A DNA stretch of 41,317 nt from Pseudomonadales bacterium (GCA_022448765.1 JAKUTI010000001.1:1-41317); one strand, 5' to 3'. Numbered from the stretch's first letter, positions 1,429-23,230 are shown. Notes: generated from the letters alone by a model not told the origin. Program-made: numbers and translations.

Positions 1429-1444
1429 TGATGACCAGCGTGGG

Positions 1445-3921: not shown

Positions 3922-3966
3922 TGGCGATACGATACGCAATGGTCGTTCGGCAAGCAAAACGGCACA

Positions 3967-7222: not shown

Positions 7223-7277
7223 CCGCGTGGTCTTTTACGTTGTCCATGATTCGCATCGTGTCGTGAGCACGTGTACG

Positions 7278-7306
7278 TTAATAAGAATATCCTATCCTTG
7301 TCGCAA
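7278..7306 (-). promoter_or_regulatory. Candidate sigma70-type promoter for cfa (TTGCGA-N17-TATTAA on the minus strand)
   Basis: Reverse complement of 7301-7306 is TTGCGA and of 7278-7283 is TATTAA. Each matches the consensus at 4/6, with a 17-nt spacer, about 55 nt upstream of the cfa ATG. Pattern match by eye only. Confidence 0.25.
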
Positions 7307-7320
7307 CTGGTTCGCGACAA
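7298..7320. promoter_or_regulatory. Perfect 7-bp inverted repeat TTGTCGC-N9-GCGACAA in the cfa / LLM divergent intergenic region (possible operator)
   Basis: Read directly from the sequence: ttgtcgc aactggttc gcgacaa. It overlaps the candidate -35 of the cfa promoter. Confidence 0.35.
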
Positions 7321-7398
7321 ATTGTGGGTTCGTTCACGAAGACAATGTCGATCCCAAGCAATTCGATTGGTGGACTTTGGCAACATAGGTTTGTACGA

Positions 7399-8445
7399 AT
7401 GAGAGTGAGTATCGGGGTGGGGGGCGCGTCGTCAGGGCGAGAGCGTGACTTTGATCGTCAAGTCGACTACGTGGTGGAAGCGGAAAAGTTGGGCGTTGAC
7501 GCCGTTTGGACGGCGGAGGCCTGGGGGCAGGATGCTGTCACCCCACTCGCTTACCTTGCGGCAAAAACACATCGCATCAAGCTTGGTACCGGGATTATGC
7601 AGATTAGCGCAAGGACCCCGTCAATGACGGCCATGACGGCATTGACAATGGCCGCGCTTTCTAACGATCGCTTTTTGCTCGGGCTTGGTGTGTCGGGGCC
7701 GCAGGTAGTTGAGGGTCTACAAGGCCGTCCGTTTCAGGGACCACTGATGCGTTTGCGCGAAACAATAGACATCATTCGTCTCGCGTTCGCGGGGGAAAAA
7801 CTAGCGTACCAAGGCAAACACCATACGCTGCCTCTTCCGGGCGGCGAGGGTAAAGCGCTGCGGTTATCGCAGCCTGGCAACCAAGCCATACCCATCTACC
7901 TTGCCACGCTTGGACCACGTGCCTTGGAGTTGACGGGTGAACTGGCTGACGGTTGGTTAGGGACTTCTTTTACGCCGGCCAATGCCGGCGCGCATCTGGA
8001 CTTCATTAGACAAGGTGCAGAAGCCCATGGGCGTACACTCGGCGATATTGATATTCAAGTTGGAGGTACGGTGGCGTTTGAGCCCGACATGGACGACGTA
8101 ATGGGTCCCTTGAAAGCTGGCATGGCGTTTACGCTAGGTGCGATGGGGTCAGCTAAAACAAATTTTTACAATGACGCGTACAAGCGCGGCGGATGGGAAG
8201 CGTCGGCAGAAGAGGTGCAACGATTATGGGTGTCGGGTCGACGCGACGAAGCCATTGCAAAGGTACCTGAGGAAATGGTTATACAGTCGAACTTGGTGGG
8301 CGATAAAGAGGCGATTCGAGAGAGGCTCTCGGCGTACAAAAGTGCAGGTGTGTCGACCCTGAGGGTTCAACCGGCTGGCAAGGATTTAGATGCCCGGCTC
8401 GAAACGTTGGGTAGCACGCTAGAACTAATCCGAGACCTCGATTGA
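7399..8445 (+). CDS. LLM-class F420/flavin-dependent oxidoreductase
   Basis: MRVSIGVGG...LGVDAVWTAEAWGQDAVTPLAYLAAKTHRIKLGTGIMQISARTP... is a typical luciferase-like TIM barrel. ATG 7399 was chosen over track start 7324 because family members begin at the MRxxIG strand. Confidence 0.85.
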   Translation: MRVSIGVGGASSGRERDFDRQVDYVVEAEKLGVDAVWTAEAWGQDAVTPLAYLAAKTHRIKLGTGIMQISARTPSMTAMTALTMAALSNDRFLLGLGVSGPQVVEGLQGRPFQGPLMRLRETIDIIRLAFAGEKLAYQGKHHTLPLPGGEGKALRLSQPGNQAIPIYLATLGPRALELTGELADGWLGTSFTPANAGAHLDFIRQGAEAHGRTLGDIDIQVGGTVAFEPDMDDVMGPLKAGMAFTLGAMGSAKTNFYNDAYKRGGWEASAEEVQRLWVSGRRDEAIAKVPEEMVIQSNLVGDKEAIRERLSAYKSAGVSTLRVQPAGKDLDARLETLGSTLELIRDLD

Positions 8446-8460
8446 TAGCCGGCTAAGCGC

Positions 8461-8778
8461 ATGCAAGATAAAGCAAGAATCCAATTGACCTACGGACTCT
8501 ATTTGGGAGTGGTTACTGCTATTTTTGGACTCTTTCTCGCGTATACGCAAGGGAATCGAGAAAACGCCTTCGTCATCTCTCACCGTCGTTTCCAGATCAG
8601 GACTTTCTGGATCGGTTGCTTGTATTTAGGGTTGGCTGCACTTTTAGTCCGGATGCTTCCGGGCGGCATATACTTGTTAATTCTCCCGACCGTCTGGTGG
8701 GTCATCCGTTGTGTTAAGGGAATACGGGATACGGTTAACAACGTATTGGTTCAAAATGAAGAGACGTGGCTTTTCTAA
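8461..8778 (+). CDS. Small integral membrane protein, unknown function
   Basis: 105 aa with three hydrophobic helices (YGLYLGVVTAIFGLFLAY; FWIGCLYLGLAALLV; GIYLLILPTVWWVI). No family recognised. Visibly more AT-rich than its neighbours. Confidence 0.55.
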   Translation: MQDKARIQLTYGLYLGVVTAIFGLFLAYTQGNRENAFVISHRRFQIRTFWIGCLYLGLAALLVRMLPGGIYLLILPTVWWVIRCVKGIRDTVNNVLVQNEETWLF

Positions 8779-9595: not shown

Positions 9596-10485
9596 CGAAG
9601 TACTTCGACCGATGCCATGTGCTCGACCATTATTCCGGCTATTTCGGTAATGATGGGTTCGGAAAGGTCATGACCGAGCCTAGGGATGATTTCCAGATGC
9701 CCGTTCCGGACGCTGTTAACAATGTCCTCGCTTGCGGACGCGTCTATCAAGGGATCTTCATCACCGTGAACGGCAAGTACGGGCATTGTTAGGTCGGCTA
9801 GCAATTCTGATCGATCGGGAGCCGTGAGGATGGCGGCCATGTGCCTTGCAGAACCAGCGGGTCGATGGGCTCGAGAGTGTGCGCTTTCGATGAACCGAGC
9901 AATTCCGTATTCGGAGGACGGGTAGTGGGGGCCAGCGTTGGTGTTGGCGGCATGAATGGATGACGCGAGTGCGTCTTCGCCGTTACTCGCTTGAAGCGAA
10001 GCAGCCATCGCGGCAATGACGCTGTCTGAAGGTTTCGGCAGGCTCGGATTACTCGTTGTTGCCATTAAAGACGTGAGCGTGAACACTCGATGGGGATGTT
10101 TGATAGCACAGCACTGAGCGATCATTCCGCCCATCGAACAGCCGATGATGTGAGCGCCGGATTGTCCCAGATGGTCGAGCAAGTCGATCACGTCGTCGGC
10201 CATGTCGCCAAGCGTATAAGGCGGTCGGACAGATGAAGGGTCGGACAGTGCTGAAAATAGTTCTTCGATGCTCGGTATCTTGGCATCGACCTCGTAGGAG
10301 AGTCCGACATCTCGGTGGTCAAATACGATAGTCCGATATCCGGCGTTGACCAATGCATCGATGAGCGTGTCGGGCCATTCGACAAGCTGACAGCCGACGC
10401 CGTGGATGAGCAGGACAGGCGGATTGGCCCTGGCGCCTTGTTGTTGGAAGTAAATCTCCCCGGACCGAGCGCTAAATAACGGCAT
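9592..10485 (-). CDS. Alpha/beta-fold hydrolase
   Basis: HGVG oxyanion region, nucleophile elbow GCSMGG (GxSxG) and a C-terminal GHDLSEP histidine region. 297 aa. Confidence 0.85.
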   Translation of the reverse strand: MPLFSARSGEIYFQQQGARANPPVLLIHGVGCQLVEWPDTLIDALVNAGYRTIVFDHRDVGLSYEVDAKIPSIEELFSALSDPSSVRPPYTLGDMADDVIDLLDHLGQSGAHIIGCSMGGMIAQCCAIKHPHRVFTLTSLMATTSNPSLPKPSDSVIAAMAASLQASNGEDALASSIHAANTNAGPHYPSSEYGIARFIESAHSRAHRPAGSARHMAAILTAPDRSELLADLTMPVLAVHGDEDPLIDASASEDIVNSVRNGHLEIIPRLGHDLSEPIITEIAGIMVEHMASVEVLR

Positions 10486-10662
10486 TCGGATACTTCGACA
10501 GCAAAGGAAAATTGTATCGTGACCGAAACGCGCTTTACAGATTTATCGGCTTGGCCCGTCAGCGATGGAGGTCCTGTGACGGTCCGTATACGCGCGAAGC
10601 AAGGATTGCCTTAGACGAGTGGCAGTGGACAATTCTCCAGAGATCCTCGTTAATGTAGGGCC

Positions 10663-11508
10663 ATGAAACGAATCGCGTTTTTGCTTGCGACGTTGGTCCT
10701 CAATGGATGCGCGAGCATTGTTTCTTCAGTCACGGACACTCTCGCTGATGATCTATCACGTGCGATACTCAATAACGATGATCTCGCGACGGTCAAGGAG
10801 GGTGTCCCTGCTTTTTTGATCGTTCTTGATGCGCTACTCGCCTCCAGCCCGGATAATCCAAATCTGTTGACGGCGGCCGCGAGATTGAATGCTTCGTACG
10901 CGACGGGTTTTGTGGTCGATCAAGCCCGGCAAACCCGGCTAACCAACAAGTCGATGGAGCTCTCACAACGCGCCGCTTGTCGCCTTATCGCTTGGACGTG
11001 CAATGCACGCACAATGCCATTCGAGGAACTGGAAGCCCGATTGCTTAGCTCGAAACCAACGGATGTACCCGCCATGTACGCATACGCCAGTAGTTGGGCG
11101 GGCTGGATTCAGGCCCACAGCGATGATTGGGCTGCGATCGCCGAATTGGCCCGAGTCAAAGCACTGATGGAAAAAGTTGTTGAACTTGATGCCGGTTACG
11201 ATGACGGTGCAGCGGTCATGTATCTTGGTGTGTTTGAGACGTTGCTTCCGCCGGCCATGGGCGGACGGCCGGAAGTTGGTCGCAGACATTTTGAAAGGGC
11301 GATTGAAATCAGCGGCGGCCGCTATCTCATGGCAAAGGTCTTGTACGCTGAGAAATACGCGCGGCTTGTTTTTGATCGCGAGTTGCACGATACGCTCCTG
11401 ACCGAAGTGTCCGTCGCGGACCCATATGACGAAGCCTTGACGCTGATTAATTTGGTTGCGCAGGATCAGGCAGCCGCGTTGCTTGAGAGTGCTGATGAGT
11501 ATTTCTAG
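10663..11508 (+). CDS. TRAP transporter TatT (T-component) family lipoprotein, TPR-like
   Basis: Lipoprotein signal with lipobox LNGC (MKRIAFLLATLVLNGCAS). The body is helical and repeat-like, ending AALLESADEYF. It matches my recollection of the TatT family and sits directly upstream of DctP/Q/M-type genes. Confidence 0.75.
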   Translation: MKRIAFLLATLVLNGCASIVSSVTDTLADDLSRAILNNDDLATVKEGVPAFLIVLDALLASSPDNPNLLTAAARLNASYATGFVVDQARQTRLTNKSMELSQRAACRLIAWTCNARTMPFEELEARLLSSKPTDVPAMYAYASSWAGWIQAHSDDWAAIAELARVKALMEKVVELDAGYDDGAAVMYLGVFETLLPPAMGGRPEVGRRHFERAIEISGGRYLMAKVLYAEKYARLVFDRELHDTLLTEVSVADPYDEALTLINLVAQDQAAALLESADEYF

Positions 11509-12484
11509 AACTCTATTACTGCTGTGTATGGTGTTTGTCGCCCACATCGCTGGTGGCGCGACGAACTTTAAGATCGCGACGATTTCTCCCGATGGGTCGT
11601 CGTGGATGAAGTTACTCCGGGAAGGAGGGCGTTCGGTCGAACGAGCAACCGAAGGACGCGTGAAATTTAAGTTCTATCCTGGCGGTGTCAAGGGCGATGA
11701 TCAGACCGTGCTGAAATTGATGCGGGTTGGACAACTCCATGGAGGGATTGTCACAACGGGCGTGTTCAACCGGATATACCCTGACGTGCAAGTCTACAAC
11801 TTGCCTATGCATTTCCGTACGCCAGAAGAGATTGATCGCGTTCGCGCGGTACTGGATCCAGAATTAATGCGGGGTCTGGAGGACGCTGGCTTTGTTTGTT
11901 TTGGCATCGCCGAGGTTGGGATGGCGTACGCGATGGGTAAGAAGCGGGCAACCAGTGTTGCGGGAGCGCGGCGATTGAAGGTATGGACACCTCAGGGCGA
12001 TGAAGCCGCCATGCGGACATTGGTTGCCTTTGGAATTACGCCCATACCGTCATCGATTGCCAATGTCTTGACGGGTCTCCAGACGGGTCTTTTTGACACC
12101 ATCACCTCGCCACCTGTGGCCGCGGTGGCTCTTCAATGGCACACGCAACTCAAGTACCTGCTCGATCTACCGCTCATGTACGTGTATGGCTTGTTTGTGG
12201 TTTCTGCAAGCCAGTTCGAACGATTAAGTGACGCTGATCAGATGAGTTTGCGATCGATCATGGCGGATACCGTCAGGCAAGCGGACCGAAAAAATCGCGC
12301 CGACGATATCGCGACGTTCAACGTACTGCTGGATCAGGGCATTGAGCTCCTAACGCCATCGGACGACGAACGTCGTGAATGGCGACGCGTTGGAGCGGAG
12401 GCGGCGGAAGAATGGATCGATCGAGGTATTGTTAGCCGCGGTCTTTATCAGCGATTCCAATCGGCACTTAAGGCACAGAGATAA
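11495..12484 (+). CDS. TRAP transporter substrate-binding protein, DctP type (TatP(T)-like)
   Basis: It aligns by eye with H. influenzae SiaP: RRLKVWTPQGDEAAMRTLVAFGITPIPSSIANVLTGLQTGLFDTITSP versus [46 protein letters not shown]. ATG 11495 gives the signal peptide MSISRTLLLLCMVFVAHIAGGA and overlaps the TatT gene end by 14 nt. Confidence 0.85.
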   Translation: MSISRTLLLLCMVFVAHIAGGATNFKIATISPDGSSWMKLLREGGRSVERATEGRVKFKFYPGGVKGDDQTVLKLMRVGQLHGGIVTTGVFNRIYPDVQVYNLPMHFRTPEEIDRVRAVLDPELMRGLEDAGFVCFGIAEVGMAYAMGKKRATSVAGARRLKVWTPQGDEAAMRTLVAFGITPIPSSIANVLTGLQTGLFDTITSPPVAAVALQWHTQLKYLLDLPLMYVYGLFVVSASQFERLSDADQMSLRSIMADTVRQADRKNRADDIATFNVLLDQGIELLTPSDDERREWRRVGAEAAEEWIDRGIVSRGLYQRFQSALKAQR

Positions 12485-12500
12485 CGATTTGCTAGTGCGT

Positions 12501-12956
12501 ATGCAGCGTTGGCTCACCCAGCTGGAAACGTATTTGCTGTGTGCACTTTTCCTCGTCATGTTAGGTGTGGCTTTCTACCAAGTGATCGCCCGAAATGTGC
12601 TTGGCGGCGGTTTACTTTGGGGTGACGAATTGGTCCGTAATGCTGTGTTATGGGTAACGATGCTTGGCGCGACCTCGGCAGCTGGAGCGAACGGTCACAT
12701 ATGCATTGACATCGTTGCTCGGTTTGCGAACGAGGGGGTTCGCGCCGTGATCGGCCGTTTGACGAGCCTCTTTACGTCGATCATCTGTTTGACCCTCGGA
12801 TGGTTTTCCATCGCCGTGGTTTACGGAGATTATGTGTACCAGACGCCCGGATTCGGGCCCGTTCCGGCTTGGATCTGCGAGCTGATTATCCCGGTTACTG
12901 CGTTTGTGATGGGATTGCGGTATTTGGTGCGAACCGTGCAGCGGGAACGCACGTGA
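12501..12956 (+). CDS. TRAP transporter small permease (DctQ type)
   Basis: 151 aa with 4 hydrophobic helices (YLLCALFLVMLGVAFYQVIARNVL; WGDELVRNAVLWVTMLGA). ATG 12501 lies 16 nt after the binding-protein stop. Confidence 0.85.
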   Translation: MQRWLTQLETYLLCALFLVMLGVAFYQVIARNVLGGGLLWGDELVRNAVLWVTMLGATSAAGANGHICIDIVARFANEGVRAVIGRLTSLFTSIICLTLGWFSIAVVYGDYVYQTPGFGPVPAWICELIIPVTAFVMGLRYLVRTVQRERT

Positions 12957-14224
12957 TCTGGGCGGGTATATTTGCCGTGATTGCGCTAGCACTCCTCGGC
13001 GCGCCTCTTTTTGCTGTGGTCCTGTCGGCCGCGATGCTGGGTTTTCTTGCAACTGACGTCAATTTATCGGTCGTTGCGATCGAGATATATCGGATTACGG
13101 ACACTCCGTTGTTGGTGGCGTTGCCGCTCTTCACGTTTGCCGGATACATGATGGCGGAGGCAAACACGTCAGAACGGCTTATGGCACTGACCCGTGCGCT
13201 CTTTGGATGGATGCCGGCTGGTCTGGCAATTGTCGGATTCGTCGCTTGCGCGCTATTTACGGCCCTCACCGGAGCATCGGGCGTGACCATTGTTGCATTG
13301 GGAACGCTTCTCCTTCCTATGCTGAAGGAAGCGGGCTACAGCGAAAGATATGGTCTTGGACTCGTGACCACCTCGGGAAGCCTTGGCCTGCTCATCGTTC
13401 CGTCGGTACCTCTTATTCTATACGGCATCGTGGCCCAGCAGCTCGATGTGGGCGAACCATTTACCATCCAGCAACTCTTTTTGGCGGGATTGTTACCAGT
13501 AGTTTTGATGGTGTCGGCACTGTCGGCATGGACCATGTGGCGCCACGGTGGCGCAAAACGAACGCCGTTCCGCCCGCACGAGGTCTGGACAAGCCTGCTC
13601 GAGGCCAAGTGGGAGGTGGCGCTCCCCTTTGTCGTGCTGGGCGGCGTTTACTCGGGGATTTTCGCGATATCTGAGGTGGCTGCGCTAGCCGCATTGTACG
13701 TTCTGGTGATCGAAGTGTTCGTTTACCGTGATGTCGCGCTCAACAAGACCCCGACGATCATCCGTGATGCCATGGTCATGGTGGGTAGCATCATACTCAT
13801 CTTAGGATGTGCGTTGGCATTCACGAATTTCTTGGTCGACACCGAAGTCCCGCAACGACTATTTGAAGTGATTCAAGAACACATCTCTAGTCGTTTGATG
13901 TTTCTGATCCTCCTTAACGTGTTGCTGCTTCTCCTTGGGGCGTTACTTGACATATTTTCGGCCATCGTAATCATGGTCCCATTGATTCTACCCGTGGCCA
14001 TAGGGTACGGAATCCATCCGTTGCACCTCGGCATTATTTTTCTTGCGAATTTACAGATCGGCTATTTCACGCCACCGATAGGCATGAATTTGTTTATTGC
14101 GAGTTATCGGTTTAATCGACCAGTGATTGAGCTTTATGCTGCTTGTCTACCTTTCATGGCCGTCCTACTTCTTGCGCTGCTTCTGATTACGTATATTCCG
14201 GTACTCTCTCTATGGTTCCTGTAA
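12953..14224 (+). CDS. TRAP transporter large permease (DctM type)
   Basis: 423 aa from GTG 12953, which overlaps the DctQ stop (GTGA). Polytopic, with DctM-like blocks LPLFTFAGYMMAEANTSERLM, FTALTGASGVTIVALGTLLLPML and IGYFTPPIGMNLFIAS. Confidence 0.9.
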   Translation: MIWAGIFAVIALALLGAPLFAVVLSAAMLGFLATDVNLSVVAIEIYRITDTPLLVALPLFTFAGYMMAEANTSERLMALTRALFGWMPAGLAIVGFVACALFTALTGASGVTIVALGTLLLPMLKEAGYSERYGLGLVTTSGSLGLLIVPSVPLILYGIVAQQLDVGEPFTIQQLFLAGLLPVVLMVSALSAWTMWRHGGAKRTPFRPHEVWTSLLEAKWEVALPFVVLGGVYSGIFAISEVAALAALYVLVIEVFVYRDVALNKTPTIIRDAMVMVGSIILILGCALAFTNFLVDTEVPQRLFEVIQEHISSRLMFLILLNVLLLLLGALLDIFSAIVIMVPLILPVAIGYGIHPLHLGIIFLANLQIGYFTPPIGMNLFIASYRFNRPVIELYAACLPFMAVLLLALLLITYIPVLSLWFL

Positions 14225-14238
14225 GCTGACTCGCTCGC

Positions 14239-14820
14239 TTGGTGAAGTCGATGTTTCGAATCGTATTGACAGTGTTGGCGTTCGAACTTGCGGTCGGTAG
14301 TGAACCCGAGGAGGTGGTGGCCGACTTTCACCACAAGCTTTTATCTTCGATGAAATCGAGTGCCCCATTCGCTGAACGATACGCTGTTCTCGATCATGCA
14401 GTCGGCGAGGCGTTTGACGTTCTGACCATCACACGGGTCAGCCTGGGCAAATCCTGGCGAGCGCAATCAGCGGAAGAACGCCTCGGTTTTCGTGCTTTGT
14501 TGCGCGAACTGATCGTCGCGACCTACACCAGCCGATTCTCAAGCTTTAACGGGCAGCGCTTTGAGACAGTCGAAGCAACGGAGGTCCGGGAGGGCCGGTG
14601 GGTGGTGAAGACTCATCTTGTGAAGAATGACGGGGGTATCGTTCGACTCGATTACTATTTTAGGGACGGTCTTATTTTCAATGTCGTTGCAGATGGTGTG
14701 AGTGATTTGTCTTTGCGCCGTTCCGACTACGCTTCCATTATCGGATCGGAGGGTCTTGACGGGCTAAGAAGGAGTATTCGAGACAGCATCGAGGAATACC
14801 GGTCTTCTGATGCGCCGTAG
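14239..14820 (+). CDS. MlaC/Ttg2D-family (HpnM-like) periplasmic lipid-binding protein
   Basis: Signal-peptide-like N-terminus (MFRIVLTVLAFELAVG). Family pattern ITRVSLGKSWRAQSAEERLGFRALLRELIVATYTSRFSSFNGQRFE. The start could be TTG 14239, GTG 14242 or ATG 14251. There is only a 14-nt gap after the DctM stop. Confidence 0.75.
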   Translation: MVKSMFRIVLTVLAFELAVGSEPEEVVADFHHKLLSSMKSSAPFAERYAVLDHAVGEAFDVLTITRVSLGKSWRAQSAEERLGFRALLRELIVATYTSRFSSFNGQRFETVEATEVREGRWVVKTHLVKNDGGIVRLDYYFRDGLIFNVVADGVSDLSLRRSDYASIIGSEGLDGLRRSIRDSIEEYRSSDAP

Positions 14821-15538
14821 CGTGGGTTTTCCGGCGGTTTTCGTCGCGCTCGCGTCGGGTTGCGCTCTTGGTCCGGGACCCGAATACGCCGTCTATGACC
14901 CCGTAGAGTCGATTAACCGACGCTCGTACGAGATCTCCGAAGGGCTGGATCGCGTTATATTGCGGCCGTTGGCGGTCGGATACCGCAAGGTCATGCCAAC
15001 CTTCGCGGAGGCAGCGGTCGAAAATGTTTTTGGCAACCTTCGCTCGACAGAGAGCGCTTTGTCGGGGTTTCTTCAGGGAGAGCCGGAACGCGGATTTCGG
15101 GACACAGGCCGGTTTATCGTCAACAGTACGCTTGGTGTTGGCGGCTTGCTGGATATCGCGACTGTGATGGGATTGGAACCTCAGCAGGAGGATCTAGGGC
15201 AAGTCCTGGCATCATGGGGTTACACGCGTTCGCGCTATCTTTACGTGCCCGTATTGGGACCGACGACGGTACGTGACCTGCCTCACCTTATTGTACGAGC
15301 GGGATTGCCTCGATTAGCCATGCACGAAAGCTACAATGGCTGGGCAGGTACCATTGACATGGCCAGCGCTCGTGCGGAAGTTCTTCTTGCGACGGATGTC
15401 CGAGACGAGGCTTCTCTTGACCCCTACACGTTCACCCGAGAAGCCTTTTACCAGCGTAGGCGGGATGCCGTTTTCAATGGCGAACCACCGGTTGAGGCTG
15501 GATTCGATCTTCTATTAGAGGAATTCGACGAGGAGTAA
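14810..15538 (+). CDS. MlaA/VacJ-family outer-membrane lipoprotein
   Basis: Lipobox ALASGCA. Conserved core INRRSYEISEGLDRVILRPLAVGYRKVMP...VENVFGNLRS...NSTLGVGGLLDIA...EDLGQVLASWGY...YLYVPVLGPTTVRD. Overlaps the upstream gene by 11 nt. Confidence 0.85.
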   Translation: MRRSVGFPAVFVALASGCALGPGPEYAVYDPVESINRRSYEISEGLDRVILRPLAVGYRKVMPTFAEAAVENVFGNLRSTESALSGFLQGEPERGFRDTGRFIVNSTLGVGGLLDIATVMGLEPQQEDLGQVLASWGYTRSRYLYVPVLGPTTVRDLPHLIVRAGLPRLAMHESYNGWAGTIDMASARAEVLLATDVRDEASLDPYTFTREAFYQRRRDAVFNGEPPVEAGFDLLLEEFDEE

Positions 15539-15544
15539 CAGACG

Positions 15545-18121
15545 TTGGACCGAATTCTTGCGCGATGGGTCGGCATGGTCGCGTCATGGCCGCTGAGCAC
15601 GCTGCTCGTTATCGCCGTAATAACCACGTTGCTTGGCCAAGTATCCATTACTCGATTCGAGATGAATTCAAATCTGAGCGATCTCATCCGTCAGGACGCG
15701 CCCTGGCGAGACGATTTTGATTCGTTCAGATCTCGGTTCCCGCAACTGGTTGATACGGCGGTCGTGGTCGTCAGCGGGACCTCAATGCAAGGGGTAGAGA
15801 ACACCTCCAAAGCCATCCATCGGCGGCTTATGGCGCGTCCCGACATGTTCTCCGACGTGTACTCGCCCATGACGGATCCTTTTTTTCGAGACAACGCGTT
15901 CCTAATGATGGATTTTGATGCGTTGGAGTCGATGGTTGATCGATTGGCCGAAGCTCAACCCATGCTGACGCGCGTCGCTGAAGACCCCAGTCTGCGGTCC
16001 GTATTTTCCTTGGTCCGCGACGGTCTTGAAAATCAGGCAGAGACCGGTTTCGACCGGGTCCTACGGATCTTGGCAGATTCGGCAGAGTCCTTGCTTGCCG
16101 GCGATAACACGCCAGTGCGTTGGGCTGACGAGTTCTTTGATAGCGGCGAGAAGCGAATCGTCGGTGTGATTATTTTGCGCGGTAAAGTCGATTATTCCGA
16201 TGCGCTGCCGAACGCGTTCATCATGCAAAATCTCAGAGCCGAAATAGCGGCCAGTGCGATCCCTGACGATATCGACGTTGCGGTCACGGGAGAAATAGCG
16301 CTGTCTCATGAGGAAATCAAAGCGGCCCAAGACGGTGTACGTATCGCCGGTTTTATTTCCCTAGGCGTGTTACTCCTGGTTTTAGGCGTAGGCATTCGTT
16401 CGGTCCGTATTATCGGCGCGACGTTCGCCATGATCGGGATTGGCATTATCTGGACGACGGGATACGCGCTGCTCACGGTGGGCGAATTTAACACCATGTC
16501 GATTATTTTCTTGGTCATGTTCTTCGGACTTGGAGTCAGCTCGGCAGTTCACTTCTCGCTCCGTTTTCGTGAGGCAATGCATCGGGAGCACTTGGCCGTA
16601 AAACCAGCCCTTGAACGTGCTGGTGCAACCGTAGGTCGGGCGATCTTGTTGTGCGCCGTAACCACCGCGATTGGATTTATGGGGTTCGCGCCCACCGACT
16701 ATAAAGGGCTCGGCGATCTGGGGATCATTTCTGCTGGAGGCATGATCGTTGCCTTCATGCTCACCTTCACATTGTTGCCAGCAGTCTTTGTCTTGGTCGG
16801 AATGCCTGGACGAGCCCCAGATACGCAAGGTGCGAGCGGGGACCTCGTCATGAAATGGCTATCTGAACGGCGAACCCCAATCCTTGCCGGGATTTCTCTC
16901 ATGACAATCGCTGCGGCCGGCGTCGGAACAAGGATGTACTTTGATTACAGCGTGCTCGCGTTGCGCGATCCCGACTCAGAATCGATGCGCACACTCGCGC
17001 TCCTACAAGAAGAAGAAATCGTCACGGACTACACCCTCTCAATCCTCACACAAGACGAAGAAGAAACGCGGAACCTTAATCGCCTTGTCGACCTACCGAC
17101 GGTTGGAAAAGTCACGACGCCATTTGATTACGTGCCAAAAGAACAAGACGATAAGCTCTTCCTGCTCGACGATGCGCAAGATTTCTTGTTTAGTGCGCTT
17201 GAACCTGGAATCAGTTTCGCGCCGCCCACTTCTTTGGAACTAGCAGACGGCTTTGCCTTGTTTAAGAAGGCTCTTCGAGAGAATTCGTTTACGGATGGTG
17301 ATTTGGAACAAGCTCGCGCTCGCCTGTTAGGGGCGGTTGCACGAATCGAACCGCTCCGGTTAGAGGAATGGCAATCGATGGTGATTAGCGGTTTAGTCCA
17401 GGAACTCCATTGGCTGCGTCGGGCGATCCGGGCTGACGAGATACAATTCGATGACTTACCCGCGAGTTTGCGAACAAGGCTCGTGAGCACGGACGGAGAC
17501 TACCTGTCCACGGCGATACCGGCACTCGACATCAGCGATGTCACAGAATTGTCGAGCTTTATCGAGGAGGTTCGCGCCGAGGTGCCGTTTGCCACGGGCC
17601 GACCCGTATTGGAATGGGGCGTCGGGAACGTGGTGGTCAATTCCTTCCTTTGGGCCTTGGTCTTTGCCGTTGTTGGCATCGGCACGGTACTTACCGTTTT
17701 TCTGCGGCGTGCGCTGACGCCGGTATTGGTCTTGATCCCGCTTGCGCTAACGGCCTTATTCACCGTTGCCGTCGCAGTATTGATCAATATGCCGTTGAAT
17801 ATGGCGAATATTCTCGTGATCCCGCTGATATTCGGTCTAGGGGTGGACAACGGGATCCATGTTGTCGAACGCTTTCGTCGGAGCGGTGCCGTTACGGAAT
17901 TGATGCATTCTAGTACGCCTCGTGCGGTCGTTCTGAGCACGCTTACCACCATCGGCACGTTTGCTGCGTTGACGATTTCACCTCATCAGGGAACGGCTTC
18001 GATCGGGTATTTATTGACGTTGGCCGTGTCGCTGTTGCTGTTGTTTACCCTATTTATCCTCCCGTTGTTGCTCACGTTTCAGGCGGGTGCAGCATCTGAT
18101 GAGACTTCGGCCACGCCTTAA
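15545..18121 (+). CDS. RND-superfamily transporter, MMPL/HpnN-like (858 aa)
   Basis: Two repeats of TM, large periplasmic loop, then a 5-TM bundle. The TM4-like segment reads GLGVSSAVHF (16526-16555) and the TM10-like segment reads FGLGVDNGIH (17831-17860). The TTG start lies 6 nt after the MlaA-like stop. Confidence 0.85.
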   Translation: MDRILARWVGMVASWPLSTLLVIAVITTLLGQVSITRFEMNSNLSDLIRQDAPWRDDFDSFRSRFPQLVDTAVVVVSGTSMQGVENTSKAIHRRLMARPDMFSDVYSPMTDPFFRDNAFLMMDFDALESMVDRLAEAQPMLTRVAEDPSLRSVFSLVRDGLENQAETGFDRVLRILADSAESLLAGDNTPVRWADEFFDSGEKRIVGVIILRGKVDYSDALPNAFIMQNLRAEIAASAIPDDIDVAVTGEIALSHEEIKAAQDGVRIAGFISLGVLLLVLGVGIRSVRIIGATFAMIGIGIIWTTGYALLTVGEFNTMSIIFLVMFFGLGVSSAVHFSLRFREAMHREHLAVKPALERAGATVGRAILLCAVTTAIGFMGFAPTDYKGLGDLGIISAGGMIVAFMLTFTLLPAVFVLVGMPGRAPDTQGASGDLVMKWLSERRTPILAGISLMTIAAAGVGTRMYFDYSVLALRDPDSESMRTLALLQEEEIVTDYTLSILTQDEEETRNLNRLVDLPTVGKVTTPFDYVPKEQDDKLFLLDDAQDFLFSALEPGISFAPPTSLELADGFALFKKALRENSFTDGDLEQARARLLGAVARIEPLRLEEWQSMVISGLVQELHWLRRAIRADEIQFDDLPASLRTRLVSTDGDYLSTAIPALDISDVTELSSFIEEVRAEVPFATGRPVLEWGVGNVVVNSFLWALVFAVVGIGTVLTVFLRRALTPVLVLIPLALTALFTVAVAVLINMPLNMANILVIPLIFGLGVDNGIHVVERFRRSGAVTELMHSSTPRAVVLSTLTTIGTFAALTISPHQGTASIGYLLTLAVSLLLLFTLFILPLLLTFQAGAASDETSATP

Positions 18122-18169
18122 TCGATGGGCGTTGAAGAAGCCGCGTAATTTGTCGAGGAGTTTAGACGG

Positions 18170-18574
18170 GTGAATGTTGAGCTCGAAATACTTGTTGAGA
18201 GAGCTGGTTTGTACGACGTTACTGAGCAAGTCAGCGAGATCGTATCGGGAAGCGGGATCAACGAGGGACTTGTGACGGTATTCATACAACACACGTCCGC
18301 TAGCCTCGTCATACAAGAGAACGCAGATCCGAGTGTTCTCGCTGACTTGCAAGCGTGGATGGACCGATCGGTTCCTCAAGACTCGCAGCTATATGCGCAC
18401 CGGGCCGAGGGTCCAGATGACATGCCCGCGCACATCCGAGCTGCGATCACGGCCTCACATGTCACCATTCCAGTGATGGATGGCCGCATGGCACTCGGTA
18501 CATGGCAGGGAATTTTCCTTTGGGAGCATCGACGTGGTCCAAAAGAACGGTGCGTGATCGTCAGCGTGCATTAA
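18170..18574 (+). CDS. yjbQ: YjbQ/UPF0047-family protein (secondary thiamine-phosphate synthase-type)
   Basis: 134 aa with VTVFIQHTSASLVIQENADPSV, GPDDMPAHIRAAITASHVTIPV and GRMALGTWQGIFLWEHR, which are characteristic of YjbQ. Confidence 0.85.
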   Translation: MNVELEILVERAGLYDVTEQVSEIVSGSGINEGLVTVFIQHTSASLVIQENADPSVLADLQAWMDRSVPQDSQLYAHRAEGPDDMPAHIRAAITASHVTIPVMDGRMALGTWQGIFLWEHRRGPKERCVIVSVH

Positions 18575-18581
18575 ACCCTTG

Positions 18582-18977
18582 TCAGCGGTCGCGAAACTCG
18601 CTCATCCATTTGCGGTGGCCGTCCGGGTCGAGAATCATCGACGCAAAGTAGGTGAGTAGATCCCTGTGAGACTTCGTTAGCTTGGCTTTATCCATAGCGG
18701 TTTCGCCGGGGCGGCTCGCAATGAATCGAAACGACTCAGTAATGGCTTCGGGTTCGCCGAGAATAGTAAAGGCTACTTCGTTGATGACACTGTGTGCCGT
18801 TTCGAGGTCGGTTTCGGTCAGTTGCGCCTCTTCGGGATCCATGACTAGGTTGGCCCAGAACGTTGTCAAGTACAGACGGTAAGTCTCTTTGTCCACAAAC
18901 GTGTCGGTGACGGCAGATCGTTTTTCGATCTGCGACATGATGGGCTCGAGTGTCTCAGTAATTTTGCTACGGTTCAT
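18582..18977 (-). CDS. Hypothetical acidic, probably all-helical cytoplasmic protein
   Basis: 131-aa ORF with coding-like composition and no signal peptide or TM segment. I recognise no motif. It lies between the convergent yjbQ and the divergent acyl-CoA dehydrogenase genes. Confidence 0.5.
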   Translation of the reverse strand: MNRSKITETLEPIMSQIEKRSAVTDTFVDKETYRLYLTTFWANLVMDPEEAQLTETDLETAHSVINEVAFTILGEPEAITESFRFIASRPGETAMDKAKLTKSHRDLLTYFASMILDPDGHRKWMSEFRDR

Positions 18978-19139
18978 CGTGCGAATGTTCGATTGGTGCT
19001 GGGACGTCGCAAAGAATGATCTCTTGGGGATCCAGTTAGGCCGGAATCATAACGTCCCCTCGGATTGCAATGCCATGGTCGAGCCTATAGGTTCGATAGT
19101 TCAGGCGGTTCTTCCGGCCAAGGGCCTTCGAGTACGAAC

Positions 19140-20279
19140 ATGTTTTCAGGACTTAATTTCGAACCCGCTCAATTACCGACGGAAGCGGAAGCACTACGTA
19201 CAGGTGTCCGAGAATTTATTGCTCGCGAAATTCCCTCCGACTATCTGCCTAACTCGGACTTTAACGAGGGCCATGTTGCGGCGTTTTCGCGCAAGCTTGG
19301 TGAGCAAGGCTGGATTGGGATGACTTGGCCCAAGCAATACGGTGGTGCGGACCGTAGTTTTTTTGAACGATACGTCGTCACCGAAGAACTGCTCGCAGCT
19401 GGAGCCCCGGTAAGCGCCCACTGGATCGCCGATCGTCAGAGCGGCCCGTTGCTTCTGCGGTACGGAACCGAGGCGCAGAAACGAAAATATTTACCTCCCA
19501 TCACCCGTGGGGAATCTTATTTTTCGATTGGCATGAGCGAGCCAAATTCCGGATCGGACCTAGCATCCGTGCAAACGAGAGCGAGCGAGGTGGACGGCGG
19601 ATGGGTGGTTAATGGAACGAAATTGTGGTCGACGGACGCACATCGCAACCACTACATGGTTGCGTTGGTCCGTACCGGACCGCCTGGCGAAAGTCGCCAC
19701 GAAGGTTTATCGCAGTTTCTCGTCGATTTGCATGGCGATGGCGTCACGGTTAGACCGATCAAGAATATCGCCGGTGGAGAGGACTTTAACGAGGTTGTCT
19801 TTGAGGATTGTTTTGTGACTGCGGAGCATCTTGTCGGCACGGTTGGCAACGGCTGGGAGCAGGTGACGAGTGAGCTAGGCTACGAGAGGAGCGGCCCAGA
19901 GCGATTCCTTTCGGCGTTCCGTGTATTCGTTGAATTTGTCCGCCACGTAGATTCCAACCCATCCGACGAAGACTCAGCCCACATTGGGCGGTTGGCGAGT
20001 CACATCATGACGTTACGTCAGATGTCGATTTCGGTAGCCGCCATGTTGCAAGCGGGAAAAAATCCGGCGACCGAGGCTGCCCTCGTGAAGTCCCTCGGCA
20101 ACGATTTTGAAAAAGCACTGCCAGAATTGATTCGTCTTGCAACACCACGTCTTGGGCCGAAACACCCACTGCGGTGCAGTCTAGAACAGACCCTATTGCA
20201 CTCACCTTCCTTTACGATTCGAGGGGGTACTCGTGAGATCTTACGCGGGGTTATCGCCCGCGGCCTGGGTCTTCGATGA
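19140..20279 (+). CDS. Acyl-CoA dehydrogenase (large/alpha-type subunit of a probable heteromeric pair)
   Basis: ACAD blocks YFSIGMSEPNSGSDLASV, GTKLWSTDAH and C-terminal FTIRGGTREILRGVIARGLGL. ATG 19140 was chosen; track start 19065 adds a Gly/Ser-rich non-conserved extension. Confidence 0.85.
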   Translation: MFSGLNFEPAQLPTEAEALRTGVREFIAREIPSDYLPNSDFNEGHVAAFSRKLGEQGWIGMTWPKQYGGADRSFFERYVVTEELLAAGAPVSAHWIADRQSGPLLLRYGTEAQKRKYLPPITRGESYFSIGMSEPNSGSDLASVQTRASEVDGGWVVNGTKLWSTDAHRNHYMVALVRTGPPGESRHEGLSQFLVDLHGDGVTVRPIKNIAGGEDFNEVVFEDCFVTAEHLVGTVGNGWEQVTSELGYERSGPERFLSAFRVFVEFVRHVDSNPSDEDSAHIGRLASHIMTLRQMSISVAAMLQAGKNPATEAALVKSLGNDFEKALPELIRLATPRLGPKHPLRCSLEQTLLHSPSFTIRGGTREILRGVIARGLGLR

Positions 20280-21211
20280 TGCACGACCTGATATTGGATA
20301 CGGCGGAACGGGTGTTTACCGATCATTGCAATAAGGCAGTACGCGACAAGGCTGAATCGGGACCCGGGGAGGATCAGAAAGCTCTGTTTCCAGAAGATCT
20401 GTGGGCCGTCGTAAAAGAAGCCGGTTTACACCAAGTCGGGGGCAAGGATTCCGGCAGCACACTGGCTGATGTGTTTCGCGTGATCCGATTGGCGGGAAAA
20501 TTTGCCCTACCAATGCCGTTCGCTGAAATCCTTGTGAGCAATCGTTTTTTTCAAGGCGAGGGGTTAACCACAGTGGCCGAGGGTCTGGTCGCTCCTTGGG
20601 CCCGTCGCGCTGCGCGTGTCATTACGGATGATGGACAACTGGTGGCTGAATTCGATGTCGTGCAAGGTTCGAATCTTGCTGGCGAGCCGAGGGACGAGAT
20701 CGTTTTCGAAGAATTCGAATCGATCGAGTTACCGCCGAATTTTCGGGCGATTATGGCGATGACCAGAGTCTCATCGATGTGCGGGGGACTCGAAAAATTG
20801 CTTGAGTTAACCATCGACTACGTTGGTGAGCGGAAACAATTTGGCCGTCCCATTTCGGGGTTTCAGGCCGTTCAACATAACGTTGCTCGGATGGCGGGTG
20901 AAGTCGCCGCGTCGATCCGTGCTAGCGATGCTGCCATAGAAGCGATGGACACGAACCGGTTCGTTCTGCAAGTAGCGGCGGCCAAAGCGCGAGTTGGTGA
21001 AGCGGCTGGGATTGTCGCTGAAATTGCGCATCAGGCTCACGGCGCGATGGGCTTCACGCATGAGCATGAACTGCATCAATACACTCGTCGACTGTGGGCT
21101 TGGCGAGACGAGTACGGTCATGAGACCGAGTGGCAGCAACTAATAGGTCGCCAGGTTGCAGCGGTGGGAGCGGAACGCGCATGGGCGTTAATTTCTGACT
21201 GTGCAAGCTAG
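20276..21211 (+). CDS. Acyl-CoA dehydrogenase family protein, shortened (beta-type subunit candidate)
   Basis: 311 aa. The ACAD C-terminal helical domain is recognisable (YVGERKQFGRPISGFQAVQHNVARMAGEV; IAHQAHGAMGFTHEHELHQYTRRLWAWR), but the N-terminal and middle parts are reduced. The ATG overlaps the upstream stop (ATGA). Confidence 0.8.
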   Translation: MMHDLILDTAERVFTDHCNKAVRDKAESGPGEDQKALFPEDLWAVVKEAGLHQVGGKDSGSTLADVFRVIRLAGKFALPMPFAEILVSNRFFQGEGLTTVAEGLVAPWARRAARVITDDGQLVAEFDVVQGSNLAGEPRDEIVFEEFESIELPPNFRAIMAMTRVSSMCGGLEKLLELTIDYVGERKQFGRPISGFQAVQHNVARMAGEVAASIRASDAAIEAMDTNRFVLQVAAAKARVGEAAGIVAEIAHQAHGAMGFTHEHELHQYTRRLWAWRDEYGHETEWQQLIGRQVAAVGAERAWALISDCAS

Positions 21212-21316: not shown

Positions 21317-23230
21317 CTATGCGGGAGAGGGTTCCCCTACTTCGTCTCCATCGTCGGAGAGTCTCGAAGACCAATCCCGAGTCGCCTCTTGGAGGCTTTG
21401 TTGGTAATAGAGCTTGGCGTAATGGCCGCCACGCGCGATGAGTTCGGCGTGATCGCCAATCTCTGAAATTTGTCCATCGATGAGAACGACTATCCGATCT
21501 GCATTCCGAATCGTCGACAACCGATGCGCGACGACGAAACTGATGCGGCCCGTTAAGACCCGGCTGAGGCTGCGTTGGATCTTAGCCTCGGTGACCGTGT
21601 CGACTGAGCTGGTTGCTTCGTCCATCACTAATATCTGCGGGTCCGCAAGAATCGCCCGCGCGAACGAGACGAGCTGTTTTTGGCCCGCGGATAACATATC
21701 GCCGTCTTCTCCGACGTCGGTCCGGTAGCCGCTCTCGAGCGCATTGATGAAGTGGTGGGCACCAACGGTTTCCGCCGCTCGGATCACGTCGTTATCGGAA
21801 GCAGTTAAACGGCCATAGCGAATGTTTTCTAGGACGGTTCCTCGAAAGACGTGCGCATTCTGGAGTACGACGCCGAGGTTGGACTGGAGCCAGTGAAGAC
21901 TGCGATTGCGGTAATCGATACTGTCGATGAAAACGTGTCCTGATGTCGGTTGGTAAAAGCGGCAGATGAGGTTAACGAGCGTGCTTTTCCCGCTACCGGT
22001 AGGGCCGACGATGGCGATGGTTTCACCTTTACGCGCAGTCAGGTTGATGTCGCGGAGGACGGGGACCGCGGTGTCGTAGGCGAAGTTGACGTTTACTAGC
22101 TCGACTTCGTGAATATCCACGGACCCACCGTCTGGAGCTCGGGTTTCGCGTTGAGGTGTAGACCGATGGATACGCACGGCGTTGGATACAGAATCTGAGT
22201 CTTTAATCTCGGGTTCAGCATCAATGAGACTTAAGACTCTTTCGGCCGACGCTTGTGCCATCTGCATTTCTGCGAACCAGTACCCCATTACCTCCACAGG
22301 GTCGAAGAAATGTCGAGCCAACATCATGAAAGCCACTAACGTCCCGGCCTCGACAATGCCAACCATCATGTCCGATCCGCCGACCGCGAGTGTGAGTCCA
22401 ACCGCCAGGCTGCTCATTATTAGAATGATTGGAATATAAATTGCCGACAGGGTGAGGTTTCGGACAGATGCGATGTACATGTCACCTGTCAGGTGGCGAA
22501 ATTCGCTTGCATTGGGCGCTTCTTTCGAGAACGTTTTGCTAGTGAGAACTCCCATAACGCCCTGCGTATATGCGCCTGTGATCCTCGAATTGGTACGGCG
22601 TACGGCACGCGCACTCCCGAGAATGGTTCGTTGGAATTTTATCGACACCCAAGCAAGGAAAGGGACGATGGCCAACACCAGCAGTGCTAATTTCCAGTTC
22701 ATCACAAGCATCGCAACGGTCATACCGAGCATGACCGCGCTACCCCAAATGAGATCGAGTAACCCCCACGCCAGAATATTCGTCAGGCGTTCACAGTCGG
22801 ATGTCATACGTGCCATTAACCAGCCGACGGGTCGATAGTCGAAAAATGAAAACGACAAATTCTGCAAGTTCGCGAATGCCGCTTTGCGGATGTCGTAACT
22901 CGCGTAGACGCGAATTTTCGACGTCATCCATATAAAACTACCAATGGAAACGGCCATCGCGAAACAGGTTCCGAGATAAATCATGGCCCAAAAAAACAGA
23001 TCGGCTTCTTGACCGTTTGCTTCGACATCGTCGATTAACCACTTGGTAATAAGGGGATACGCCATCTCCATAAGCGCAGTCACGCTTCCGGCGACCACCA
23101 TCACCCATAATTCGGCCTTGTAGGGGAGCGTAAAGGTGAACAAACGTCGCCAGAGACTGATTTGCATCGTGGCACTGGATCGTAGTTCGTCGAAGCCATC
23201 GTCATAATTCTCGTCGTCGTAGTTATCCAC
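21317..23230 (-). CDS. ABC exporter, fused TMD-NBD half-transporter (consensus-site subunit)
   Basis: Walker A GPTGSGKST, non-canonical signature LSAGQKQL, Walker B ILVMDEATSSVD with the catalytic Glu, H-loop VVAHRL. N-terminal 6-TM exporter domain. Confidence 0.9.
   Translation of the reverse strand: MDNYDDENYDDGFDELRSSATMQISLWRRLFTFTLPYKAELWVMVVAGSVTALMEMAYPLITKWLIDDVEANGQEADLFFWAMIYLGTCFAMAVSIGSFIWMTSKIRVYASYDIRKAAFANLQNLSFSFFDYRPVGWLMARMTSDCERLTNILAWGLLDLIWGSAVMLGMTVAMLVMNWKLALLVLAIVPFLAWVSIKFQRTILGSARAVRRTNSRITGAYTQGVMGVLTSKTFSKEAPNASEFRHLTGDMYIASVRNLTLSAIYIPIILIMSSLAVGLTLAVGGSDMMVGIVEAGTLVAFMMLARHFFDPVEVMGYWFAEMQMAQASAERVLSLIDAEPEIKDSDSVSNAVRIHRSTPQRETRAPDGGSVDIHEVELVNVNFAYDTAVPVLRDINLTARKGETIAIVGPTGSGKSTLVNLICRFYQPTSGHVFIDSIDYRNRSLHWLQSNLGVVLQNAHVFRGTVLENIRYGRLTASDNDVIRAAETVGAHHFINALESGYRTDVGEDGDMLSAGQKQLVSFARAILADPQILVMDEATSSVDTVTEAKIQRSLSRVLTGRISFVVAHRLSTIRNADRIVVLIDGQISEIGDHAELIARGGHYAKLYYQQSLQEATRDWSSRLSDDGDEVGEPSPA

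Follow-up and report, generated by a model that had tools for sequence, protein, structure and literature searches.

Tripartite ATP-independent periplasmic (TRAP) transporters that work with a TatT protein were defined in Treponema pallidum, where the binding protein is the docking partner of TatT and hydrophobic cavities are present in the two proteins (PMC5812351). The route proposed for these systems leads from an outer-membrane TatT to the binding protein and on to the membrane permease (PMC5812351), and long-chain fatty acids are bound by Enhygromyxa salina TatT and by Tp0956 of T. pallidum (PMC11713862). A TatT accompanies about 2% of TRAP systems, and for about 25% of TatTs the partners are not the P, Q and M subunits (PMC11713862); TatT proteins are known from hydrocarbon degraders and from marine habitats poor in nutrients (PMC11713862, PMC5812351). 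One TatT with such other partners belongs to the BstABC system of Methylococcus capsulatus, in which a protein of the TatT family is combined with a binding protein of the PhnD type and an HpnN-like transporter of the resistance-nodulation-division (RND) type (PMC10942540). For Burkholderia multivorans, a hopanoid pathway made up of HpnM (MlaC-like), HpnS (MlaA-like) and HpnN has been proposed from microsynteny and AlphaFold 3 models (PMC12324291; 10.1101/2025.07.29.667474); according to that preprint the TIGRFAM hopanoid genome property lists a VacJ-like lipoprotein, and its text contains neither TRAP nor TatT (PMC12324291). Here, we describe a 41,317-nt stretch of DNA from an uncultured marine gammaproteobacterium (Pseudomonadales bacterium, GCA_022448765.1, JAKUTI010000001.1:1-41317; hereafter the window, always meaning the whole stretch), in which the four genes of a TatT-associated TRAP transporter are directly followed by a triad of genes for an HpnM-like protein of the MlaC family, an MlaA-like lipoprotein and an HpnN-like RND transporter.

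The seven genes are consecutive open reading frames (ORFs) on the + strand (10663-18121), and the ORF list reproduced both the coordinates and the junctions given by the original prediction, which had been made from the sequence alone. We consider the locus to be a composite operon, transcribed as one unit, whose two lipid-handling modules are autonomous, each driven by an ion gradient and acting on the same or metabolically linked lipids, and we put the probability of this reading at roughly 0.5. The partnership would be real but not obligatory, and the operon probably one for facultative lipid trafficking. The genes are as follows.

10663-11508, + strand: tatT, TatT-family lipoprotein with lipobox LNGC and Ala at position +2 (PF16811, 3.7e-68, full length).
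11495-12484, + strand: DctP-family periplasmic binding protein with a Sec-type signal peptide and without a lipobox (NF037995 TRAP_S1, 257 bits).
12501-12956, + strand: DctQ, small TRAP membrane subunit (PF04290, 4.4e-24).
12953-14224, + strand: DctM, large TRAP membrane subunit, GTG start (TIGR00786, 340 bits, cut-off 268).
14239-14820 (start possibly ATG 14251), + strand: HpnM-like MlaC-family protein, predicted periplasmic lipid shuttle (PF05494, 4.9e-29).
14810-15538, + strand: MlaA/VacJ-family (HpnS-like) lipoprotein, predicted to lie in the outer membrane, with lipobox ASGC and Ala at position +2 (PF04333, 1.7e-56).
15545-18121, + strand: HpnN-like RND (MMPL/HAE3-type) transporter of the inner membrane (TIGR03480, 697 bits, cut-off 752).

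All seven family assignments lie above the Pfam cut-offs, with 230 bits for TAtT (PF16811, profile positions 1-263 of 263), 99 for DctP, 85 for DctQ, 261 for DctM, 102 for MlaC, 191 for MlaA and 72 for MMPL; the products of 14239-15538 therefore do belong to the MlaC and MlaA families, as had been proposed. The genes are packed as in an operon: tatT and dctP overlap by 14 nt, dctP and dctQ are 16 nt apart, dctQ and dctM overlap by 4 nt (GTGA), dctM and the hpnM-like gene are separated by 14 nt, the hpnM-like and mlaA-like genes overlap by 11 nt, and 6 nt remain before the RND gene. The start of the hpnM-like gene is ambiguous, given that TTG 14239 has no Shine-Dalgarno sequence and ATG 14251 is preceded by GGTGAAG, which makes the gap after dctM either 14 or 26 nt. 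The N-termini of orthologues favour ATG 11495 as the start of the binding protein and TTG 15545 as that of the RND transporter. The GC content is uniform over the whole block including the dctM/hpnM junction, and because no break in composition is present there we rejected a recent horizontal insertion at that point.

By its modelled fold, the first protein is a TRAP-associated TatT that is closer to the fatty-acid binders than to BstC. An AlphaFold2 model (predicted local distance difference test score 89, predicted TM-score 0.83) was placed by Foldseek at a TM-score of 0.78 to the palmitate-bound E. salina TatT (8g52) and 0.75 to Tp0956 (3u64), against 0.53 to the sterol-binding BstC (7t1s), and it is this difference that sets it nearer to the fatty-acid TatTs. 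Compared with solved structures by sequence, it matches E. salina TatT 8g52 at E 6e-14 and T. pallidum Tp0956 at E 5e-5. The predicted lipoboxes, LNGC in TatT and ASGC in the MlaA-like protein, are both present, and the TatT lipobox Cys is found in 18 of the 18 orthologue N-termini listed, from 51. Under the Lol sorting rule, a lipoprotein that lacks Asp at position +2 goes to the outer membrane. In both lipoproteins the residue after the lipobox Cys is not Asp, in the window as well as in the orthologue N-termini inspected, and both are for this reason predicted to be anchored in the outer membrane. Ordinary signal peptides are carried by the binding protein and the HpnM-like protein; the former has a lipobox Cys neither in the window nor in the N-termini of the orthologues that were inspected.

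The binding protein differs from most of its family at the residue that normally grips the substrate. In SiaP, the carboxylate of the substrate is held by a salt bridge to R147, an Arg conserved in 96.8% of DctP proteins (PMC5812351). Trp164, within the motif KVW[TV]P, occupies this canonical position in the binding protein of the window, and the five best DctP proteins in the PDB align K[IL]R to the KVW motif. An alignment to SiaP likewise puts Trp164 opposite R147 and shows that N187 is replaced as well; the SiaP sequence used agrees with the published numbering in its length and in where R127, R147 and N187 fall. The Trp is invariant in 52/52 orthologues from genome loci and in 71/71 TatT-linked binding proteins from metagenomes. 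As it is present whether or not the RND triad follows, at the sequence level it is a mark of the whole TatT-linked subfamily and not of the fused operon specifically. TRAP binding proteins with this Trp are a recognisable subfamily that probably does not bind carboxylates in the usual way, and the protein encoded here seems suited to a hydrophobic ligand rather than to a carboxylate held by Arg. T. pallidum TatP(T) is no closer to it by sequence than are ordinary DctP proteins (rank 37).

The three products of the RND half resemble HpnM, MlaA and HpnN at family level. The best NCBIfam model of the HpnM-like protein is HpnM (TIGR03481), at 140 bits against a cut-off of 160; on the MlaC equivalog it reaches 26 bits against 195, and its match to MlaC in the PDB is weak (E about 1e-5). 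The MlaA-like protein matches the MlaA structures 5nuq and 8i8r at E 1e-22 and scores 93 bits on the MlaA equivalog (cut-off 375). For the RND transporter the best model is HpnN (TIGR03480, 697 bits, cut-off 751.85); it scores 499 bits on the HpnN equivalog NF052374 (cut-off 1100) and only 161 bits on the BstA sterol-transporter model (cut-off 1400). Its residues 4-843 align end to end with the Burkholderia HpnN structures 6wu0 and 5khn (E 1e-88), at an identity of about 30% as read from the alignment. A crude hydropathy scan is compatible with 12 transmembrane helices and two periplasmic loops of about 235 aa, in line with the predicted architecture of a 12-helix RND with large periplasmic loops. 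No hopanoid, sterol or isoprenoid genes were found in the window, and no shc, hpn or isoprenoid genes in six annotated related loci (L080-L083, L041, L078); the marine Pseudomonadales group to which the carriers belong is not known to make hopanoids. With scores below the NCBIfam cut-offs and no hopanoid genes in the window, the label 'HpnN-type' that had been given to the RND is kept, for it and for the HpnM-like protein, as a statement of sequence resemblance only.

The window RND is unusual at transmembrane helix 4 (16520-16540, residues 326-337), where it reads GLGVSS with Ser in place of Asp, as do the homologues of loci L001-L005 and L040. The 72 other RND homologues have G[LI][GSA][VI]D[FY] there, mostly GLGVDF. 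We take this Asp to correspond to D344 in the GLGVDF of Burkholderia HpnN, a putative proton-relay residue. The window lineage keeps Asp768 in transmembrane helix 10 (GLGVDN). As a side observation, two loci of the K189A clade (L048 and L049) show the reverse, with GLGAAS in helix 10 and the helix 4 Asp kept, so that of the symmetric pair of Asp residues just one is retained in the window lineage and just one in these two loci.

The arrangement is conserved far beyond the window. A profile built from 22 homologues and run against one genome per GTDB species yielded 79 RND loci, whose neighbours were located by tblastn with the window proteins; 65 of the loci were assessable, that is, had enough upstream sequence. 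All 79 are from uncultured Gammaproteobacteria/Pseudomonadales, marine and sediment organisms represented by metagenome-assembled genomes (MAGs) and single-amplified genomes (SAGs) that include Ca. Azotimanducaceae, Ca. Azophilus and the K189A clade. Among the carriers of the cluster are complete MAG chromosomes such as OZ244212.1, OZ244040.1, OY760226.1, OZ244830.1 and OX044361.1. A contig with DctQ-DctM-HpnM-MlaA-RND (L066, CAMDVY010000042.1) sits inside a MAG labelled Klebsiella pneumoniae, probably through a binning or labelling error. The seven genes are co-directional and in order in 50 of the 65 assessable loci, and 44 of these 50 lie outside the window lineage, at RND identities of 44-54%. 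Among the other 15, one lacks only the MlaA-like gene, seven have HpnM-MlaA-RND without TRAP, six have HpnM-RND only (RND identity about 41%) and one has the RND gene alone. Counted by junction, the RND genes come directly after the TatT-TRAP operon in 51/65 loci, and an MlaA-family gene adjoins the hpnM and hpnN-like genes in 57/65. The order tatT-dctP-dctQ-dctM is kept in 51/51 TRAP-bearing genome loci and also in the loci collected through TatT (below), and most of the 50 full loci retain the 4-nt overlap of dctQ and dctM (overlaps of 1 or 16 nt in a few; an 86-nt gap in L043).

Within the full loci the block is of nearly constant size, with a span of 7.3-8.3 kb, measured over tatT through to the last base of the RND gene, in 50/50, a dctM-hpnM gap of median 20 nt and maximum 158 nt, and no gene-sized insertion inside the seven genes in any of the 50. 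The flanks vary widely: the distance from the RND gene to the downstream YjbQ gene is 51-7781 nt (>1 kb in 30/39 loci), and that from the upstream enoyl-CoA hydratase (ECH) or hydrolase gene to tatT is 177-3068 nt (>1 kb in 25/46). Hence, rearrangements pile up at the borders of the block and never within it. Pairwise identities correlate between the halves (TatT-RND r = 0.915, DctM-RND 0.87) no less strongly than within them (DctM-TatT 0.88, MlaA-RND 0.87). When DctM identity is regressed on RND identity over all loci, the window lineage is no outlier (mean residual +0.019, sd 0.038), and we therefore rejected independent acquisition by this lineage. From these comparisons, the two halves appear to have been co-inherited, and their join appears to be old and vertically inherited.

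Two further features bear on transcription.

10486-10662, no strand: divergent intergenic region of 177 nt between an alpha/beta-hydrolase gene (- strand) and tatT.
18170-18574, + strand: UPF0047/YjbQ-family gene, GTG start (PF01894, 4.1e-43).

The divergent region is the sole non-coding stretch of intergenic-promoter length for the seven-gene block, and we infer that the block is transcribed as one unit. It held neither a sigma-70 consensus match nor an Rfam family, and a scan of the whole window at the Rfam gathering thresholds returned zero RNA families. The original prediction went too far in stating that the junctions leave no room for internal promoters, given that promoters can sit within coding sequence. 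A consensus promoter and terminator scan of 10300-18700 gave site counts at or below shuffle expectation, and internal signals are thereby neither proven nor disproven. One sigma-70-like site lies in the 3' part of dctM (13947-13974; TTGACA, 16-nt spacer, AATCAT, 10/12 matches), about 265 nt 5' of the hpnM-like gene. We do not count it as an internal promoter, as the regional number of such sites is below shuffle expectation and it may be due to chance. The YjbQ gene starts 48 nt past the RND stop with a strong ribosome-binding site (GAGGAG) ahead of its GTG, and no terminator-like hairpin was found in the RND-YjbQ gap; the transcription unit may, on this sequence, comprise eight genes with YjbQ (18170-18574) included.

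In the composite operon that we favour, the first module (tatT-dctP-dctQ-dctM) would be a tetratricopeptide-repeat (TPR)-protein-associated TRAP importer. The outer-membrane TatT would capture a hydrophobic ligand, probably one resembling a long-chain fatty acid, and hand it to the soluble, Arg-less DctP-type binding protein, from which DctQM would import it into the cytoplasm by cation coupling. The second module (the hpnM-like, mlaA-like and RND genes) would be an Mla-like inter-membrane shuttle with a proton-driven RND in place of MlaFEDB. At the inner membrane, lipid would be handled by the RND; its ferry across the periplasm would be the MlaC-like protein, and its outer-membrane station the MlaA-like lipoprotein. 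One module would thus shift lipid between the membranes and the other would bring a hydrophobic moiety into the cell, in a partnership that would be facultative in that either module can be lost.

A hydrophobic-ligand or lipid role, as originally proposed, fits because of the structural matches of TatT, the Arg loss in the binding protein and the homology of the RND to HpnN. The idea of one physical trans-envelope machine of seven proteins is unsupported. A reading in which the seven proteins form one ATP-independent trans-envelope lipid route and the MlaA-like and MlaC-like proteins exchange with the RND and, via TatT and the Arg-less binding protein, with the TRAP importer, seems to us distinctly unlikely.

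What is joined here, across a clade of abundant uncultured Pseudomonadales, is a pair of transport systems, and the join suggests the hypothesis that the TRAP and RND modules share a substrate. It touches on the cargo of TatT-TRAP systems and on whether HpnM-like and MlaA-like proteins truly serve an RND. Sister lineages with both modules, with TRAP only or with the RND triad only offer a ready comparative design. An exchange of lipid between the modules would widen Mla-type shuttling to include transporters that run on ion gradients; without such an exchange, the locus would be no more than two known modules set side by side in an ordinary way. Should the single seven-protein route be true, it would be the first TRAP transporter fed by an Mla-type shuttle, and an oligotrophic marine bacterium would take up or recycle membrane lipids on ion gradients alone.

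The chief alternative is that two unrelated transport operons abut, namely a TRAP importer for hydrophobic nutrients and an independent RND/MlaC/MlaA module for envelope maintenance, their adjacency being vertically inherited. A number of results weigh for it and against a working partnership. A second set of loci, anchored on TatT and drawn from a metagenome scan and two genome look-ups, comprised 45 assessable loci. The RND triad is present in 18 of them, 7 of which are near-identical to the window, and absent in 27; in 15 of these 27, dctM is immediately followed by YjbQ and a pair of acyl-CoA dehydrogenase (ACAD) genes, the ECH ... YjbQ-ACAD setting being unchanged. The synteny of the seven genes, whose absence had been named as refuting the idea, is thus seen when loci are chosen by their RND (50/65), and among loci chosen by their TatT 27/45 are without the triad. 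Conversely, 14 of the 65 assessable RND loci are without TRAP genes, and either half can thus be found by itself, in many cases at an identical position in the chromosome. In a neighbour-joining tree of DctM, TRAP-only loci are scattered among triad-bearing clades, and the nearest TRAP relatives of the window lineage (L082, L083, L099, L105, L117, L090, L091) are TRAP-only where assessable, the L090 contig stopping too soon after dctM to score the triad. Collinearity in the clade extends to the surrounding genes (those for glucokinase, ECH, cfa, YjbQ and the two ACADs), and the synteny may be partly inertia. Lastly, all carriers are uncultured MAGs or SAGs.

The triad also has other recurrent companions. 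A gene for an LtaS/OpgB-like protein directly follows the RND gene in 28/50 full loci, in 6/7 TRAP-less HpnM-MlaA-RND loci and in the lone-RND locus, often overlapping the RND stop by 4 nt (for example L041:12562-14451, with an equivalent position in about 45 loci). Its product is a membrane protein of about 630 aa with a sulfatase-superfamily domain (PF00884) and weak similarity to the phosphoglycerol transferase OpgB/MdoB and to LtaS. It may point to the lipid chemistry that the RND serves; it is absent after 18121 in the window and from the window lineage. In four TRAP-less loci (L031, L035, L041, L042; about 6000-8500), genes for a Bcr/CflA-type major facilitator superfamily (MFS) transporter and a Rieske oxygenase alpha subunit lie directly 5' of hpnM on the same strand. 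The best models of the Rieske protein are GbcA, anthranilate dioxygenase and HcaE, and its similarity to the sterol demethylase SdmA is faint. As LtaS/OpgB-like, MFS and Rieske genes recur beside the triad, the closest functional partner of the triad may be something other than the TRAP transporter.

Mere abutment is at odds with three observations: the dctM-hpnM junction is never split in 50 species-level genomes (158 nt at most), against the kilobase insertions seen downstream in 30/39 and upstream in 25/46 loci; all genes are co-directional, with stops and starts that overlap or nearly do so; and the triad directly follows the TatT-TRAP operon in most assessable RND loci. We consider this explanation unlikely, if the one most to be reckoned with. 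Taken together with co-inheritance, the scattered TRAP-only loci are best fitted by repeated loss of the triad. The coupling of the TRAP and RND halves is hence facultative, not obligate, as the composite-operon reading has it.

A further alternative draws on the neighbouring genes. The window otherwise holds genes of ordinary metabolism, namely those for a peptide ATP-binding cassette (ABC) importer (619-4008), a glucokinase, cfa, an F420-type luciferase-like monooxygenase (LLM) oxidoreductase, a crotonase, the alpha/beta hydrolase, a two-subunit ACAD pair of PimC/IpdE2-like type, two ABC half-transporters (21317-25058), a glutaminyl-tRNA synthetase and a CoA-transferase. The cfa, crotonase and two ACAD genes that had been pointed out near the block are thus where they were said to be. 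The two ACAD genes (19065-21211) overlap by 4 nt, and the second (311 aa) matches the C-terminal ACAD domain only, with IpdE2 and PimD as best models, which suggests a two-subunit ACAD of the type acting on bulky or dicarboxylic acyl-CoAs. With 334.3, the LLM-class oxidoreductase (7324-8445) falls just short of the cut-off of 335 of TIGR03559, an F420-dependent model, and in a related genome F420_ligase and F420_oxidored genes lie nearby (region L081:1-897). The use of F420 would be unusual for a gammaproteobacterium.

With such neighbours, the seven proteins could be read as a single uptake chain from the outer membrane to the cytoplasm for exogenous hydrophobic acids, which would feed beta-oxidation by the ECH and ACAD enzymes. 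The MlaA-like protein would extract substrate partitioned into the outer membrane, the MlaC-like protein and TatT would pass it to the binding protein, DctQM would import it, and the RND would act as an extractor or safety valve on the inner-membrane side. An ECH gene does lie 5' of tatT in 46/50 full loci, YjbQ and a heteromeric-type ACAD pair lie downstream in most, whether the triad is present or absent, and the alpha/beta hydrolase gene is divergent from tatT. The binding of long-chain fatty acids by TatTs and their occurrence in nutrient-poor seas and hydrocarbon degraders (PMC11713862, PMC5812351) would suit such a chain, as would retrograde transport by the Mla pathway of E. coli (PMC6424457). 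However, RND pumps are not known as importers, and the prevailing view of HpnN is that it carries lipid outwards (PMC12324291, PMC11713862). Moreover, TRAP-only relatives retain the same catabolic neighbours, which implies that uptake needs no triad, and the binding protein lacks the Arg that would grip a carboxylate. The link to the catabolic genes is perhaps plain synteny: much of the neighbourhood is collinear in relatives, and its tie to the transporter may therefore be mere inheritance. We regard an uptake chain of this kind as distinctly unlikely.

A true hopanoid exporter (HpnN/HpnM/HpnS) for endogenous hopanoids, with the TRAP transporter incidental or recycling hopanoid-derived material, is improbable: HpnN and HpnM are the best NCBIfam models, some homologues are named 'HpnN-like' by the Joint Genome Institute (JGI) and the triad matches the proposed HpnM/HpnS/HpnN pathway (PMC12324291), but the proteins fall below every curated cut-off (TIGR03480 697<752; NF052374 499<1100; TIGR03481 140<160), the identity to solved HpnN is only about 30%, and shc, hpn and isoprenoid genes are absent from the 41-kb window and the six annotated related loci.

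How, then, does the locus compare with the systems described so far? In the literature searched (TatT, HpnN, MlaA, MMPL, TRAP), where the hits were confined to papers from the Dassama lab and to the hopanoid preprint, no description of the seven-gene operon was found. Both halves are of kinds already known, and their fusion appears undescribed in that literature. The statement that no known system combines these parts has to be qualified by two partial precedents, HpnM/HpnS/HpnN (PMC12324291) and BstABC (PMC10942540).

The TRAP half is closest to the TPR-protein-associated TRAP transporters, represented by TatT/TatP(T)/TatQM of T. pallidum and the E. salina TatT 8g52. As there, a TatT-family gene comes first and DctP-type and DctQ/DctM genes follow, the TatT fold matches 8g52 and 3u64 (TM-scores 0.75-0.78), and a hydrophobic ligand is expected. 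Unlike in T. pallidum, DctQ and DctM are encoded by separate genes rather than by a single dctQM homologue (tatQM), and the binding protein is soluble, whereas TatP(T) is a lipoprotein. In addition, three more lipid-transport genes are here appended to the operon.

The RND half shares with the HpnN-HpnM-HpnS module a triad of the same three families and a full-length alignment of the RND to the HpnN structures. It differs in that its RND, HpnM-like and MlaA-like proteins each miss the cut-off of the corresponding NCBIfam model (HpnN, HpnM and MlaA), and the hopanoid gene context is absent. The Asp of the GLGVD motif in transmembrane helix 10 is absent from Burkholderia HpnN, the Asp of helix 4 is lost in the window lineage, and the triad is joined to a TRAP operon.

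BstABC is the only characterised precedent for a TatT combined with an HpnN-like RND, and in it, too, one operon encodes a periplasmic lipoprotein of the TatT family together with a periplasmic binding protein and the HpnN-like RND. Its binding protein is of the PhnD type and ours of the DctP type, and BstABC is without DctQM, MlaC-like and MlaA-like genes. The low score on the BstA model (161/1400 bits) and the TM-score of 0.53 to BstC set our locus further apart, as does the absence of sterol genes near it. We rejected a sterol system of the BstABC type because of the model scores, the family of the binding protein and the fold ranking.

Compared with the Mla system (MlaA-MlaC-MlaFEDB), MlaD (MCE), MlaE, MlaF and MlaB are absent here: no MCE, MlaE or MlaF genes were found in the cluster, and the only ABC genes of the window are the half-transporter exporters and the peptide-type importer. 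The predicted inner-membrane partner is instead an RND running on the proton gradient rather than on ATP. The MlaA and MlaC equivalogs score far below cut-off (93/375 and 26/195 bits), although membership holds at the level of the Pfam families. What the two have in common is an MlaA-family lipoprotein and an MlaC-family carrier encoded side by side and, as we read the locus, the same logic of shuttling between the membranes.

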